Of a stretch of 64,000 nt of DNA, positions 60,113-64,000 are shown one piece after another. The position numbers and the translations under genes were made by a program. Within the stretch, counting starts at the first letter, position 1. Each line of letters opens with the position of its first letter. The DNA is taken from contig JANXWY010000096.1 in the NCBI GenBank assembly GCA_025350905.1, positions 1,919-65,918 of the forward strand, in the 5' to 3' direction. The notes beneath the pieces were generated by a model. That model saw only the letters and a program-made list of their open reading frames with translations, ran no database searches and was not told where the DNA came from. This DNA comes from Verrucomicrobiota bacterium. Lineage in GTDB: Bacteria; Verrucomicrobiota; Verrucomicrobiia; Limisphaerales; JADLHS01.

Positions 60113-61654
60113 ATGTGCTTGCAAGTTTCCGCGGTCCTCCCGTGGCATGATTGGAACTGGAGTGGAGATGAGATCATCCACAAACCGGTCGTTCCCGCCT
60201 GCCGTCCCATCCCGCGCACTGGGAAACGATACCCAATAGACATCCGCGAATTTCTGACGACGGCGAACAACGCGGTCGTGAGCAACACCCTTGGCGGATT
60301 GGTCAAGGCGTTGCCGCAGTCGGAACAGGCAATGTTTCGCTCCCATTCACGAGGCAGCTTTGACTTTCGCACTGACCGGATCGTGCAGTTCCTTGGTACG
60401 CTGCGCTACCTCAAATCGCATAACAAAACGCGGTACTGCCCCGACGCTTGGCTCTTTCCTGATGAGACACTGGCGCAAAAGGGCGGCGACTGCGAAGACT
60501 TGGCGTTCTTGCTTGCGGCCCTGCTCATGGCGGCGGGTGTGAGCAACTACTGCATCCGCGTCGCGCTAGGTTCGCTCGTGATTCATCCGCCCTTTGGCCA
60601 GACGCGGAGGCAGGCTCATTGCTGGGTGATGTACCAAAACGAAAGCGGCGTCTGGGAAATCCTTGAACCCACTGCACTCGTCCAGCACAAGGCCGCTGGC
60701 TCGAAGGGTCGGGCAGCCAATGCCGCCATGTATCCCACCGAGTACGTGCCCCACTATGTGTTCAACTCCGATCACCTGTGGTTGATCCGCTCGGCACACG
60801 TGGACGCGCACAAGGACTTTGATGAGTATTGCACCAGCCGCCGGAGCTTCTGGAATGAGTTCGATCCCTCGTTTGCCGCCTCGATCCACAAGTCCATCTT
60901 CGATGCTGCGTTGAGTGGCAGGGTTTCGGGAGGCGCGATGTCCGCGATCAAACGCAAGAGTCTCTGGCTGGATGTTAACATTGCCACCTACGACCCCCGC
61001 GACCACTTCGATAACGGCTACATCGCGGCAGGCTGGGATCGGGTGACGCAGAACTTGGCGAAGTTTAATGCCGACAACTCGGACTGGGCGAGCTTCGGCG
61101 CAGCGGGCCATGCCATCGCCGACTTTTACGCGCATTCGTCTTACCTTCATTTCGCCCGCCTCAAGAACGCGGCGGGGGCCGCTGGTCAAGCCTTGCCCTA
61201 CGCGCCCGATGTGGCGCTGGCGGGAACCCCGGCATATACCTCCAGTCCTGCTGCGCCGTCGCTACCTCCGTTCGATCTGACTTCAGGCAAGTTCTCAACG
61301 AACACTAAGCTGAACCCCGGCACCGGACAGGACGCCGCCAATGAGTGGGCGGGCCAAATCATCTCCGGCCGCTATGCGCAAAAATATGAGCCGAAGGCAG
61401 GCTTCTGGGAAGGGTTGACCAGCATCCCGTATGAACTCTCCAGCGCAGCCGATTTCAAACGGCGCGGACTCCTGCCGCATCATGATGAAATCGCCGTGGA
61501 TTCGGAATCACCCGGCAAGGCGCACCGGCTTTATGGCAGCGCGGCCAATCCGGCACCGGACGACCGCAGTGCCTTCACGAACCAGTTCCGCTGGCGGGTG
61601 AATACGGCCATTGCCCACATCCGGCAAGCATTCGACGACAACGGGCATGGCTGA
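60113..61654 (+). CDS. Fusion protein: transglutaminase-like cysteine protease core + zinc-dependent phospholipase C / Het-C-like domain
   Basis: TGase-like triad context 'KGGDCEDLAFLLAALLMAAGV', 'HCWVMYQNESGVWEILEPT'. PLC/Het-C-like metal motifs 'IHKSIFDAAL', 'YDPRDHFDN', 'GHAIADFYAHSSY', 'LPHHDEIAVD'. Confidence 0.6.
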   Translation: MCLQVSAVLPWHDWNWSGDEIIHKPVVPACRPIPRTGKRYPIDIREFLTTANNAVVSNTLGGLVKALPQSEQAMFRSHSRGSFDFRTDRIVQFLGTLRYLKSHNKTRYCPDAWLFPDETLAQKGGDCEDLAFLLAALLMAAGVSNYCIRVALGSLVIHPPFGQTRRQAHCWVMYQNESGVWEILEPTALVQHKAAGSKGRAANAAMYPTEYVPHYVFNSDHLWLIRSAHVDAHKDFDEYCTSRRSFWNEFDPSFAASIHKSIFDAALSGRVSGGAMSAIKRKSLWLDVNIATYDPRDHFDNGYIAAGWDRVTQNLAKFNADNSDWASFGAAGHAIADFYAHSSYLHFARLKNAAGAAGQALPYAPDVALAGTPAYTSSPAAPSLPPFDLTSGKFSTNTKLNPGTGQDAANEWAGQIISGRYAQKYEPKAGFWEGLTSIPYELSSAADFKRRGLLPHHDEIAVDSESPGKAHRLYGSAANPAPDDRSAFTNQFRWRVNTAIAHIRQAFDDNGHG

Positions 61655-61816
61655 CGTGCTGACGCCCGGCGCCAATGAGCGTGGCCACAATCGTCGGCAG
61701 GAAATTTAGGATCACGCCGGAGGAAGTGAAGCAGTTAGTTGATATAGTTCGGCAGCTTGGCGGGAAGTTGGCCTCGCAGCTTGTTCCGCCGCCTCCAGCT
61801 TCCACCAACCTGTAGA

Positions 61817-62326
61817 ATGAAACAAATATCCGCAATTTTGATTGGTCTGGCGCTGATGGGCTGCTCGACCGTCCCGACGTTCGTCCGTCACGACATTCCC
61901 AACTTCAGGCCGGTGCCCGACGATCCGGGTGTTTACCGTGGGGGGCAGCCCAAGTCTCAGGAAGGCTGGGCATATCTTCAAAGCCTCGGTGTCAGCAACG
62001 TCGTCAAATTGAATTTGGAGTCCGAAGCCTCGGACAGCGATGCCAGAGCGCTGGGGATGACGGTAAACTATTGTCCCATCGCCACGCTTCACCAGATACT
62101 GCTCAAGCCCGACCGGCAAACCGTGTCCAACGCGGTCGCGGCCATCACACCCGGCACATACGTTCACTGTAAACACGGGCAAGATAGAACCGGGTTGATC
62201 GTTGGTTGTAAACGCGTCTGGCAGGACGGCTGGGCCAAGACCAACGCGTGGAACGAAATGCTTGCCGACGGTTTTCATCCGTCGCTTCACGGATTGACCA
62301 AATTCTGGAACACCGACGTTCATTGA
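61817..62326 (+). CDS. Lipoprotein protein-tyrosine/dual-specificity phosphatase (CX5R; PFA-DSP/Siw14-like)
   Basis: ATG at 61817. Lipobox 'LALMGCS'. Active site 'VHCKHGQDRTGLIVGCKR'. Confidence 0.7.
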   Translation: MKQISAILIGLALMGCSTVPTFVRHDIPNFRPVPDDPGVYRGGQPKSQEGWAYLQSLGVSNVVKLNLESEASDSDARALGMTVNYCPIATLHQILLKPDRQTVSNAVAAITPGTYVHCKHGQDRTGLIVGCKRVWQDGWAKTNAWNEMLADGFHPSLHGLTKFWNTDVH

Positions 62327-62629
62327 CTCAGCGAGCCAATCGGATTCGTAAACAAGGCTCGCCCGACGGTGGTTGTAAACAGGCGCGGTGTCACCGGTGT
62401 ACACAGTGCCGGTTCGCCTGCGGATACCTGCATTTCGGAGTTACGCGTCTTGCACGTTGTGTACGAAGCGCGTAGCCTCGCGGAACGAAGCGGCCCGTCT
62501 GGGCAAGAATGAGGCGGCTTCTCATTATTCAAGAATGAAAGCCACGCTGTTCAAGGTTGCAGGGGATGATGCACCGAGTGCTGAACGCCTCCGGTTTATC
62601 ATGTCTCTGGTCGGCTGAAGGATAGCAAC

Positions 62630-63787
62630 ATGGGATACTCCAAGTACACTGAAGACATCGAGAAGATTCACTCCCTAAATATCTTTGGGACGTTCCTTGA
62701 TTTTCAAGTACGGGAGCCGAAACCGATTCATCGTTGCGGCTTCTGCAACTTCGAGACGGATGACCGTCAGTCACGTGATGCGCACATTCTGAAGGAGCAC
62801 CGCGATGCGGCAATTTACTTGGAGTACGATGATCGCATTGTGCCTGATCGGGCCGTGTTCAAAGTTCGCCCGATTCACTTGAAGATTCGCTGCCCGGCAT
62901 TGCCTGATGGCATCGAAGTCACGATCAGTTCGAGATCAAAGAAGTTGCCATCCCGAACATACAAGGACGGCGCTCTGCTGAAGATTACGCCGCCGGATGA
63001 AGAAGTTGTCACCATTCAACTCGGTATCGGCGCGTACAAACGCGAGTACTCCATTTCATTTCGTCACCAGACCTTTTCAGCCAAACTGACGACAACACTT
63101 ACGGCTGAGGTTAAATCTGCAAATGCGCGGATTAGCAACTGGGAGTGGCCGGATGTAGACAAATTCAAGACCGCCCTGTTGGGAGAGGCGGGGTTGAGCG
63201 AGGATGACAACTTGCACCGCCACGGTATTTTCGAGTTCTACCACGCTCTGTGGCTGGAGCAGAACCGCAAAACTGCATTCGCACAGCATTTCGAGGCAGC
63301 CTTCAAAGACCTGCGCAACTTCAGCGACCCGCTCTCCCAAATGATCGTCAGTTATTTCTTGTACCGGGTGAATTGCTTCGACAGTATTTCGCCGCTTATT
63401 CCCTTTCCGCGCCTGCGCCACGTGGCTGCCTTTTTTGGATCACCGTTCGACAGTCTGGTGGTCAACAACCGGCCCAAGCCCAAAGACGCGGAAGGAGAAT
63501 TTGTAGTGTGCGAAATTGCCATCGCCGACGCCGATGAATCAGTTCTTTCCGCCTTGTCGGCGGTGCAGTGTGCCAACTGGAGCGCGGCGCTTCAGCACTG
63601 CGAAACTGCCGAGCAGCAAATACTGGCGAATGACGATCAAACCCGGTACCGAGTGCTGTTCCTCCGTTATCGTATCCATCGCTTGCAGGGCGACACGGGC
63701 GCGAGCCGCCGTCTTGCCGAGCGGTTGAGAGTGTGCAGCGTGAAGTCATTCCAAACTGAAGCTGAAAGCTACGTGCGCAGTATTTGA
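62630..63787 (+). CDS. Hypothetical protein with N-terminal classical C2H2 zinc finger and helical C-terminal half
   Basis: ATG at 62630 after gaagga. 'CGFCNFETDDRQSRDAHILKEH' = C-x2-C-x12-H-x4-H. Confidence 0.55.
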   Translation: MGYSKYTEDIEKIHSLNIFGTFLDFQVREPKPIHRCGFCNFETDDRQSRDAHILKEHRDAAIYLEYDDRIVPDRAVFKVRPIHLKIRCPALPDGIEVTISSRSKKLPSRTYKDGALLKITPPDEEVVTIQLGIGAYKREYSISFRHQTFSAKLTTTLTAEVKSANARISNWEWPDVDKFKTALLGEAGLSEDDNLHRHGIFEFYHALWLEQNRKTAFAQHFEAAFKDLRNFSDPLSQMIVSYFLYRVNCFDSISPLIPFPRLRHVAAFFGSPFDSLVVNNRPKPKDAEGEFVVCEIAIADADESVLSALSAVQCANWSAALQHCETAEQQILANDDQTRYRVLFLRYRIHRLQGDTGASRRLAERLRVCSVKSFQTEAESYVRSI

Positions 63788-63790
63788 ATT

Positions 63791-64000
63791 ATGGAAAACG
63801 CCAACCCATCTGCCTTTGAAGTCGCCCTCAACGCTACCAAGTCCAAAGCAGCAGGATCACTGAAAGCCGCTGACATCAAGCGGTTGATCAAGCTGTTGGG
63901 CAAGAGGCCCAACGAGATAGGAGTGCGACAAATCACGGAACTCATTGTGAGCGAGTCGGACAACGAAGTCCTCGTGTATGAACTTTTGTGTGAAATTGAA
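63791..64000 (+). CDS. Hypothetical protein, 3' end cut by window edge
   Basis: ATG 3 nt after the previous stop. Open for all 70 codons to the edge (MENANPSAFEVALNATKSKAAGSLKAADIKRLIKLLGKRPNEIGV...). Absent from the ORF track only because no stop is reached. Confidence 0.45.
   Translation, partial: MENANPSAFEVALNATKSKAAGSLKAADIKRLIKLLGKRPNEIGVRQITELIVSESDNEVLVYELLCEIE

Follow-up and report, generated by a model that had tools for sequence, protein, structure and literature searches.

In this study, we analysed positions 60113–64000 of a 64,000-nt stretch of DNA from a Verrucomicrobiota bacterium (contig JANXWY010000096.1; the whole stretch is called the window below), and we believe that three cargo units, each acquired independently, make up this region as a mosaic on a Limisphaerales (Verrucomicrobiota) island that is integrative or replicative. 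The third unit is the beginning of a four-gene cassette with an Hsp70, which we regard as a probable defence or anti-mobile-element system. Taken jointly, these two proposals form a reading that we favour with some confidence and with real room for doubt. An earlier note on this DNA had listed four open reading frames (ORFs) on one strand, g1 to g4, with spacers of 162, 303 and 3 nt, and had proposed them as one candidate defence module. The four ORFs were confirmed on the plus strand, and both the coordinates and the spacers (g1/g2, g2/g3 and g3/g4, respectively) were reproduced exactly:

60113–61654, plus strand: g1, 513 aa
61817–62326, plus strand: g2, 169 aa from the ATG giving MKQISAILIGLALMGC; the longest ORF starts at 61757
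62630–63787, plus strand: g3, 385 aa
63791–64000, plus strand: g4, 70 codons, open at the end of the window

All four ORFs are real genes, as the note had supposed: a protein search returned more than 560 full-length homologs of g1, g2 passes the gathering score of a Pfam family, the 23 close homologs of g3 all come from Verrucomicrobiota and measure about 385 aa, and the 70 residues of g4 in the window are the N-terminus of the 342-aa protein P0145, which was found by a homolog search with the middle gene of locus L048.

The relatives of these genes were compared by blastn with the window joined to L051, a contig of the same sample whose first 781 nt are 100% identical to window positions 63220–64000. 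The loci L002 and L004, whose g1 is 77–80% identical, matched the window only over 60076–61650, and L002 matched again only at a metallophosphoesterase (Metallophos) gene located 5.06 kb further on (86% nucleotide and 85% amino acid identity). The loci L048 and L049 matched the window only from 62434 onward, with a DNA identity of approximately 83%. The breakpoints of DNA homology are thus 61650/61651 and 62433/62434, and they set apart two further segments:

61651–62433, plus strand: segment of the second unit, 783 nt, holding g2, with no match to the relatives of either flank
62434–62629, plus strand: cassette leader, 196 nt before g3, shared with L048 and L049

The leader probably holds the cassette's own promoter or regulatory region. 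To follow the co-occurrence of the genes, g2, g3 and g4 were searched with tblastn, first in 36 loci and later in 70. None of the 33 g1 loci, nor the places that carry a 74%-identical g1 homolog, contained a homolog of g3, g4 or g2, and neither g1 nor g2 was present in the approximately ten independent contexts of the cassette, so that a single co-inherited module of four genes was rejected. For g2, nothing was found in up to 70 loci besides the identical contig L001 and a distant PTP in L002/L003 (about 18 bits). Because the DNA homology breaks between the units and the units do not occur together elsewhere, we concluded that there are three cargo units instead of one module, and we are highly confident in this mosaic structure.

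The comparison with L002 also revealed where the cargo was inserted. The g1 and YfcE-like Metallophos genes of L002 are orthologs of those in the window lineage (80% and 85% amino acid identity, respectively); they were ancestrally adjacent, and the junction between them has taken up different cargo in each lineage. In the window lineage, the inserted cargo consists of g2 and the Hsp70 cassette, 5.06 kb in all. In L002, a PTP-SAK-type phosphatase gene (10709–11314) and an ADP-ribosylglycohydrolase (ARH) gene lie between g1 and Metallophos, with 4-nt overlaps with their neighbours. The first 47 nt of this phosphatase gene (10709–10755) duplicate the start of Metallophos (12264–12310) at 39 of 47 nt. 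This duplication is an insertion scar, and it marks the g1/Metallophos junction as a hotspot for the insertion of cargo.

The earlier note had listed g4 as a truncated unknown, and it turned out to be the second gene of an Hsp70 operon that is cut by the end of the window. Its 70 window residues match the middle gene of the relatives at 45–86% identity, and contig L051 carries the operon to its end:

L051 572–1600: g4, 342 aa, ending at about 64819 in window numbering
L051 1597–3099: Hsp70, 500 aa, 4-nt overlap with g4, matching Pfam HSP70
L051 3080–3322: small gene, 80 aa, 20-nt overlap with Hsp70
L051 3490–4026: Metallophos, 178 aa, YfcE-like

Accordingly, g3 and g4 are the first two genes of a four-gene cassette with the order g3, g4, Hsp70 and small protein. 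In the close relatives with enough sequence, g3 is followed after 2–5 nt by a gene of 341–343 aa and then, with a 4-nt overlap, by an Hsp70 of approximately 500 aa, and a last gene of 76–112 aa was called in L042–L047 and L054–L056 and was found by tblastn in L041. The gene order was counted over the g3-family loci L041–L048, L051–L057, L059 and L061. All of these with enough downstream sequence have a gene of about 340 aa and then an Hsp70 of 450–500 aa, usually with a 4-nt overlap, and the gene of 76–112 aa follows the Hsp70 in all but L052/L053 and L059. The family is also broad. A profile search of 1.84 billion representative proteins gave 182 g3-family clusters at E ≤ 1e-3, mostly full-length (350–400 aa) with a few spurious poly-zinc-finger matches, and the breadth of the family is at least about 100 clusters at 50% identity. 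The gene order is kept in distant branches, in which g3 is about 20–26% identical and Hsp70 35–40% identical to those of the window; for example, the g3 of L052/53 is 26% identical to that of the window, and L057, L059 and L061 were found through a different g3 subgroup. We therefore consider it very likely that the cassette is a conserved functional unit.

The C2H2 finger that the earlier note had read in g3 (C36, C39, H52 and H57) is nearly invariant in the close family and is kept by most of the broad family, with one subgroup lacking it. The AF2 model of g3 (pLDDT 81) consists of an N-terminal helix with MGY..ED, the C2H2 finger, a beta-sandwich (63–144) and a TPR-like alpha-helical repeat (155–385). 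A structural assignment of g3 was tried with Foldseek against PDB and BFVD and was abandoned, because only generic beta-sandwich and helical-repeat proteins with low TM scores were returned. The g4 protein has a helical N-domain and a C-terminal coiled coil, and no catalytic-looking invariant residues were seen in it. Two relatives of the Hsp70 scored 144.7 and 155.9 bits against Pfam PF00012 (cut-off 20.6), and the ATP-binding motifs GIDFGTTNS, SVKR, HEPFAA, VFDWGGGTLD and GG(T/S)S, which correspond to phosphate-1, the K70 equivalent, the E171 equivalent, phosphate-2 and adenosine, respectively, are invariant in 10 cassette Hsp70s, so that the protein looks catalytically intact. It aligns to residues 5–502 of DnaK and thus includes the nucleotide-binding domain and the beta substrate-binding domain, without the helical lid.

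Two short conserved elements were also noticed in the cassette proteins. At the C-terminus of the cassette Hsp70s, the tail D(I/L)C(Y/F)GL is invariant (L051 2800–3099 and relatives), and a (Y/F)(V/I)PGD motif is common to the small proteins, those of L057 and L061 included. Both elements may be docking motifs for the helical repeat of g3.

The neighbourhoods of the cassette are rich in defence genes and mobile genes:

L042–44: BREX system, with 16 nt between brxL and the start of the cassette; AbiE, an SLFN/AlbA_2 protein and a methyltransferase are encoded in the same island (L042)
L055/56: cassette lies after a different BREX system; in L055 it starts 10 nt after brxL; GajA/GajB-like (Gabija) genes directly downstream
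L054: BREX lineage as in L055; g3 and g4 degraded; an integrase gene and a Toprim gene adjoin
L045–47: cassette starts 8 nt after drmC of DISARM; drmB upstream
L049: excisionase-type HTH_17 gene upstream
L050, L052 and L059: DDE transposases flank the cassette
L052: serine recombinase flanks the cassette
L057: UvrD and PD-(D/E)xK helicase-nuclease

In L045–47, DrmC scored 228 bits against its NCBIfam model (cut-off 133), and DrmB matched its PADLOC family at 6e-78. The BrxL of L042 (7945–9984) and that of L055 (7945–9990) are only 32% identical, whereas the adjacent g3 proteins are 67% identical, which indicates that the cassette joined two unrelated BREX systems independently. In 2.9 million IMG/VR viral contigs no g3 was found, and two distant g3-like proteins had no match among the PLSDB plasmids. 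With the neighbourhoods of g1 as an internal control, the link between the cassette and defence or mobile genes stands out strikingly. The closeness to such genes that the earlier note had expected of all four genes thus held for the cassette (BREX, DISARM, Gabija, transposases) and failed for g1 (134 neighbours in 31 genomes), and its idea of an undescribed conflict cassette survives for g3 and g4, as part of an Hsp70 operon beside BREX, DISARM and Gabija, but not with g1 and g2 as members.

Within 12102–15344 of L052, an insertion sequence (IS) with a DDE_Tnp_1 transposase was observed in the 3' end of the cassette Hsp70; the last 93 Hsp70 codons and a remnant of the small gene follow 1.4 kb further on. 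Together with the degraded g3 and g4 in L054 and L050, this split Hsp70 indicates that decayed copies of the cassette exist.

From these neighbourhoods, we infer that the cassette is a defence or anti-mobile-element system, and we think this likely, though by no means settled. That it acts autonomously, as a chaperone-based system with no classical effector, is a bolder proposal that we hold only tentatively and would not bet on. In our working model, in which every step is inferred, g3 would be the co-chaperone or adaptor that recognises the target, and with its zinc finger and the surface of its repeat it would load a protein or nucleoprotein of the invader onto the Hsp70. The g4 protein, translationally coupled to the Hsp70, might act as a scaffold or as a partner similar to a nucleotide-exchange factor. 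The lid-less Hsp70 could work as an ATP-driven clamp, which either sequesters or remodels the protein or nucleoprotein of the invader or switches on growth arrest or dormancy, and the small protein with the (Y/F)VPGD motif would be a modulator of the cassette. If the defence role is true, the cassette is a compact and widespread system built on a catalytically intact Hsp70. If it is also autonomous, sensor and effector would both be a dedicated chaperone machine, a mode of prokaryotic immunity not described so far that would need no nuclease, protease, NADase or pore, and such a stand-alone chaperone system without a classical effector raises the questions of what is bound and how infection is stopped. 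At about 4.1 kb, the cassette is small enough for direct testing.

No named system was matched, in agreement with the earlier note. PADLOC-DB v2.0.0 has no family for g1, g2, g3 or g4; with the full-length g3, g4, Hsp70 and small protein of L042, L046 and L048, it gave only coiled-coil noise from g4 (E ≥ 0.004), and the distant cassette of L057 had no match in it. In scans of the four cassette proteins against Pfam, NCBIfam and PADLOC, the only matches were of HSP70/MreB type, in the third gene. To our knowledge, Hsp70-like proteins in conflict systems have so far been a matter of prediction, and they figure there solely as accessories to systems of the GTPase or McrBC type. The literature that we covered, which is not complete, offered no stand-alone Hsp70 defence cassette beyond CoCoNuT and the GTPase systems.

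Two groups of predicted systems come closest. The type III CoCoNuT system, which is predicted to act in defence, combines CnuB/CnuC with the Hsp70-like CnuD (Bell et al., eLife 2024, PMC11090510). CoCoNuT and the cassette share an Hsp70-like protein with nucleotide-binding and substrate-binding domains, as well as coiled-coil, Ig-like beta-sandwich, zinc-binding and helical-repeat domains, and both are often embedded in BREX or restriction-modification (R-M) superoperons (PMC11090510). In contrast, the McrB-type GTPase (NxD), DUF2357/McrC, HEPN and cold-shock domains of CoCoNuT were not detected in the cassette, and CnuD has been described with degenerate Walker A-like motifs (PMC11090510), whereas the motifs of the cassette Hsp70 are all intact. 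Similarly, GTPase-centric conflict systems have been reported that include HSP70, with or without tubulin, GrpE and DnaJ/TPR fusions (Kaur et al., eLife 2020, PMC7159879). In these systems too, an Hsp70 is recruited to a predicted NTP-dependent conflict system with TPR or co-chaperone-like partners, but their defining feature is one or two TRAFAC GTPases (DO-GTPase, GAP1-N2), they occur mostly in actinobacteria and firmicutes (PMC7159879), and no GTPase, tubulin, GrpE or J domain was detected in the cassette. Because no GTPase or McrC was detected, the assignment of the cassette to CoCoNuT or to the GTPase–Hsp70 systems was rejected. We suggest that it belongs among the Hsp70-recruiting conflict systems of defence islands and would be new among them in lacking a GTPase or McrBC core. 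It has been shown that host DnaJ mediates phage sensing by a bacterial NLR-related protein (PMC12169576).

The housekeeping operons (DnaK–DnaJ–GrpE, HscA–HscB and HscC–DjlC) were considered as well. They resemble the cassette in having an Hsp70 with two partners, and the zinc-binding and the long coiled-coil partner of the cassette loosely recall DnaJ and GrpE. However, the cassette Hsp70 has no lid, no J domain, HPD motif or GrpE match was found in the cassette, and the cassette occurs sporadically, in defence islands and mobile elements. Against the NCBIfam equivalogs, whose cut-offs for DnaK and HscA models range from 620 to 820 bits, the cassette Hsp70 reached 143.8 bits for DnaK (cut-off 648) and 139.2 bits for HscA (cut-off 620).

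Several points weigh against a mosaic with an autonomous defence cassette, and they lead to the other explanations. The defence link is guilt by association in about ten contexts, all of them metagenomic. No nuclease, protease, NADase or membrane effector was recognisable in the cassette proteins by the Pfam, NCBIfam and PADLOC scans, and no match in sequence or structure stands behind the roles of g3 and g4 as co-chaperone and exchange factor (Foldseek TM ≤ 0.22). Since PADLOC-DB v2 dates from 2023, a newer name for the cassette could exist. The tight linkage to brxL and drmC could also mean an accessory role in place of autonomy, in which case the cassette would be an accessory or regulatory module of BREX and DISARM-type systems. 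The cassette lies directly after brxL in two unrelated BREX lineages and after drmC, with gaps of 8–16 nt that suggest co-transcription, and CoCoNuT with CnuD is likewise embedded in BREX and Type I R-M superoperons (PMC11090510). However, the available flanks of the window, L049, L052/53, L057 and L059 contain no BREX or DISARM gene, and the conserved 196-nt leader of the cassette's own is kept in the window and in L048/L049; we consider an accessory role unlikely. DnaK-type chaperones are classic helpers of phage and plasmid replication, so the cassette might instead serve the mobile element itself, as a replication or assembly chaperone or as an actin-like partition or stability module. Its neighbours often include genes for a transposase, recombinase, integrase or primase, none of its own genes looks like an effector enzyme, and the Hsp70 belongs to the actin/ParM fold superfamily and gives weak MreB_Mbl matches. 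Nevertheless, in L042–44, L045–47 and L055/56 the cassette stands inside strings of BREX, DISARM or Gabija genes, 8–16 nt from the last defence gene and away from any replication genes, the presence of a substrate-binding beta domain makes the protein a true Hsp70 and not a ParM, and the viral contigs of IMG/VR and, for the two distant g3-like proteins, the PLSDB plasmids gave nothing. Service to the element is accordingly an improbable explanation in our view.

The remaining two explanations concern g1 and g2. The first treats g1 to g4 and whatever follows as a single sensor-plus-effector defence module, as the earlier note did. The genes are on the same strand, adjacent on the island and without a match to a known system, and the two hydrolase domains of g1 could be effectors. 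Yet the genes do not co-occur outside this genome, and DNA homology is interrupted from one unit to the next. In L049, which has the closest relative of g3 (80%), the HTH_17 gene and a 119-aa gene stand before it instead of g1 and g2, and other genes lie downstream of the closest g1 relatives. The spacers of 162 and 303 nt also differ from the spacing within the cassette, where there is a gap of 3 nt and the overlaps are 4 and 20 nt. We give a single module almost no credence. Another point that weighs against fully independent units is that each of the two lineages with orthologous g1 and Metallophos has a CX5R phosphatase gene directly after g1, and g1 and g2 may therefore be not wholly unrelated. 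The identity between these two phosphatases is only about 27%, and a lipoprotein signal is predicted for that of the window alone. In line with this, g1, the CX5R phosphatase and the metallophosphoesterase (with ARH in L002) could form an "eraser" set into which the Hsp70 cassette was inserted later, and the task of this set, in counter-defence or in immunity, would be to take away modifications or signals made of ADP-ribose, phosphate or nucleotides. In L002, the genes g1, PTP-SAK, ARH and Metallophos each share 4 nt with the next, the ARH is similar to Tri1 and DraG, g1 and Metallophos are orthologous in the two lineages, and the phosphatase follows g1 in both and in 0 of 31 other g1 loci within 5 kb. 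On the other side, only two lineages are involved, their phosphatases are about 27% identical, one phosphatase is predicted to be exported while g1 is cytoplasmic, the 47-nt duplication marks the L002 phosphatase itself as an insertion, and g1 is overwhelmingly solitary elsewhere. An eraser set is therefore doubtful, and we return to three separate cargo units for the description of g1 and g2.

The first unit, g1, is judged from its sequence to be a cytoplasmic two-domain hydrolase:

about residues 100–230: LapG/BTLCP-type Cys-protease domain, with C127 and H169
about residues 250–513: Het-C-type all-alpha metal-hydrolase domain

Its homologs are 57–90% identical within Verrucomicrobiota, with a Limisphaerales metagenome-assembled genome as the closest named source, and 37–43% identical in Acidobacteriota, Rhodocyclaceae, Polyangiaceae, Desulfobacterales, Ignavibacteriales and Chlorobiota; isolates with a homolog at this level (37–43%) are Geothrix terrae and Sphaerotilus uruguayifluvii. 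In an alignment of 22 sequences with identities down to 57%, g1 is conserved from its first residue (60113–60175), with invariant M1-C2, W11, W14-N-W16 and G18-D19. A signal peptide is absent from the N-terminus, MCLQVSAVLPWHDWNW, and an extension of the ORF upstream is impossible.

The fusion of a transglutaminase-like with a Het-C-like domain that the earlier note had proposed, together with its phosphatase and C2H2 finger calls, was borne out by profiles, Foldseek and invariant residues. The N-domain of g1 is a transglutaminase-like Cys protease of the LapG/BTLCP type. Its profile matches the Legionella LapG structure PDB 4fgo at E 2.6e-6 with GDCED aligned, Foldseek retrieved the same structure at E 6e-4 (target TM 0.52), and GDCEDLA (C127) and H169 are invariant across the family alignment. 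g1 thus has the LapG fold and the GDCED catalytic and Ca-binding motif. It scores only 14.6 bits against the LapG equivalog NF045674 (cut-off 320), which is below the equivalog level. LapG is periplasmic, whereas g1 lacks a signal peptide. In g1 the LapG-like part is joined to another hydrolase domain, and partners of the LapD or LapA type were not found nearby.

Studies have shown that Het-C domains are similar to Zn-phospholipase C and S1-P1 nuclease and that they share an ordered signature of H, [DE], HxD, HxxxDxxxH and [ST]G (Zhang et al. 2012, PMC3482391). VWA7_N is the Het-C-type domain of animals, as in VWA7. In g1, this signature was found in order as H259, D264, H298xD300 (H298-F-D300), H333xxxD337xxxH341 and S418G419, all invariant, and the Nxx[DE] element could not be placed with confidence. 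Pfam VWA7_N (PF25107) was matched by all 10 g1-family C-domains tested, with a best E of 3.1e-5 and scores of 18.8–20.4 bits, which is under the gathering score of 27.5. The AF2 model of the C-domain is all-alpha, with helices over 253–347 and a pLDDT of 84–95 also over 260–400. The profile of the C-domain gave no sequence match to solved phospholipase C or P1 nuclease structures. The likeness to Het-C and Tox-HET-C thus lies in the all-alpha fold, the ordered signature and the family-wide consistency of the VWA7_N matches, but g1 has no secretion or polymorphic-toxin architecture and no adjacent immunity gene. These results define g1 as a large, strongly conserved and uncharacterised family of fusion proteins, in which a LapG-type protease is joined to a Het-C-type hydrolase.

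The neighbourhoods of g1 do not resemble those of the cassette. An all-against-all BLASTP of the ORFs within 5 kb of g1 at 33 loci found shared neighbours only among sister genomes. Among 134 neighbours in 31 genomes, no Pfam family occurred more than 3 times, and most were housekeeping genes, such as TyrRS, CstA, signal peptidase, sulfatases and GGDEF; the PADLOC matches among them were isolated single cases. The 74%-identical homolog is likewise surrounded by unrelated genes. Being solitary among housekeeping neighbours, g1 is not typical island or defence cargo, and a role as a defence effector is unlikely. The earlier note had counted two hydrolytic effector domains in its module; both belong to g1, whose 134 neighbours show almost no defence genes. 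Three further candidates were tried and rejected. A conserved partner or immunity gene was sought with phmmer among downstream ORFs of about 110–370 aa, and only two sister loci were linked. The CX5R phosphatase is not a general partner, as it was seen only in the window/L001 and in L002/L003. A role of g1 as phage cargo was dropped because the IMG/VR matches were all partial and came from the transglutaminase core of other proteins. At 12092–12325 of L008, an 83-aa relic similar to g1 residues 432–512 was observed about 550 nt downstream of an intact g1 homolog.

The second unit carries g2, a CX5R dual-specificity phosphatase of the PFA-DSP/TpbA type that is probably exported as a lipoprotein. 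It matches Pfam Y_phosphatase2 (PF03162) at 33.3 bits (gathering 27, E 4.6e-8), its CX5R P-loop is HCKHGQDRTG, and its closest solved relative is the periplasmic TpbA of Pseudomonas aeruginosa (E 6.8e-7). g2 shares the CX5R(T) P-loop, the overall domain and, as in TpbA, a predicted export with TpbA and PFA-DSP/Siw14. In contrast, its similarity to TpbA is low (E about 1e-6), a predicted lipoprotein signal takes the place of the Sec signal peptide, and no TpbB/YfiN-type partner was found near it. The earlier note had called g2 a lipoprotein phosphatase. The CX5R family was upheld, whereas the lipoprotein part depends on the start codon chosen: if translation begins at the ATG at 61817, a lipoprotein-type signal (MKQISAILIGLALMG followed by C) is present, but the automatic gene call on the identical contig L001 starts g2 at M14 and the signal peptide is lost.

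The mobile-looking island that carries these units has the following features in the window:

52339–52413, minus strand: tRNA-Val(GAC), marking a drop in GC from about 0.61 to about 0.55
54392–57714, plus strand: primase and D5/P4-type helicase-like gene pair, 455 aa and 652 aa, overlapping; weak matches to DUF5906, TIGR01613 and phrog_19930
59319–59852, plus strand: phage-type Holliday-junction resolvase, phrog_1770 (6.5e-22); the longest ORF starts at 59127
59993–60016, plus strand: terminator-like hairpin between the resolvase gene and g1, a 9-bp stem and then a T-rich tail; found by a consensus scan, as a pattern match only

The region that starts at tRNA-Val has a GC content of about 0.55, compared with about 0.61 before it. 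The earlier note had placed the genes as accessory cargo on a mobile element, just distal to its replication and recombination genes, and this position was supported by the low GC, the tRNA-Val, the weakly matched primase-helicase and the resolvase, which is the last backbone gene ahead of the cargo and is followed directly by g1. The 3' end of the minus-strand tRNA-Val points away from the low-GC island, and neither a tRNA repeat of at least 13 nt nor an integrase gene was found up to 67.5 kb (window and L051). The hairpin at 59993–60016 suggests that g1 begins a new transcription unit. The 455-aa ORF (54392–55759) has no family match and contains a prim-pol/AEP-like stretch (DTGNKSLHFWF), and its end reaches 4 nt into the 652-aa D5/P4-type helicase gene. 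The two ORFs look like a split primase-helicase of the element.

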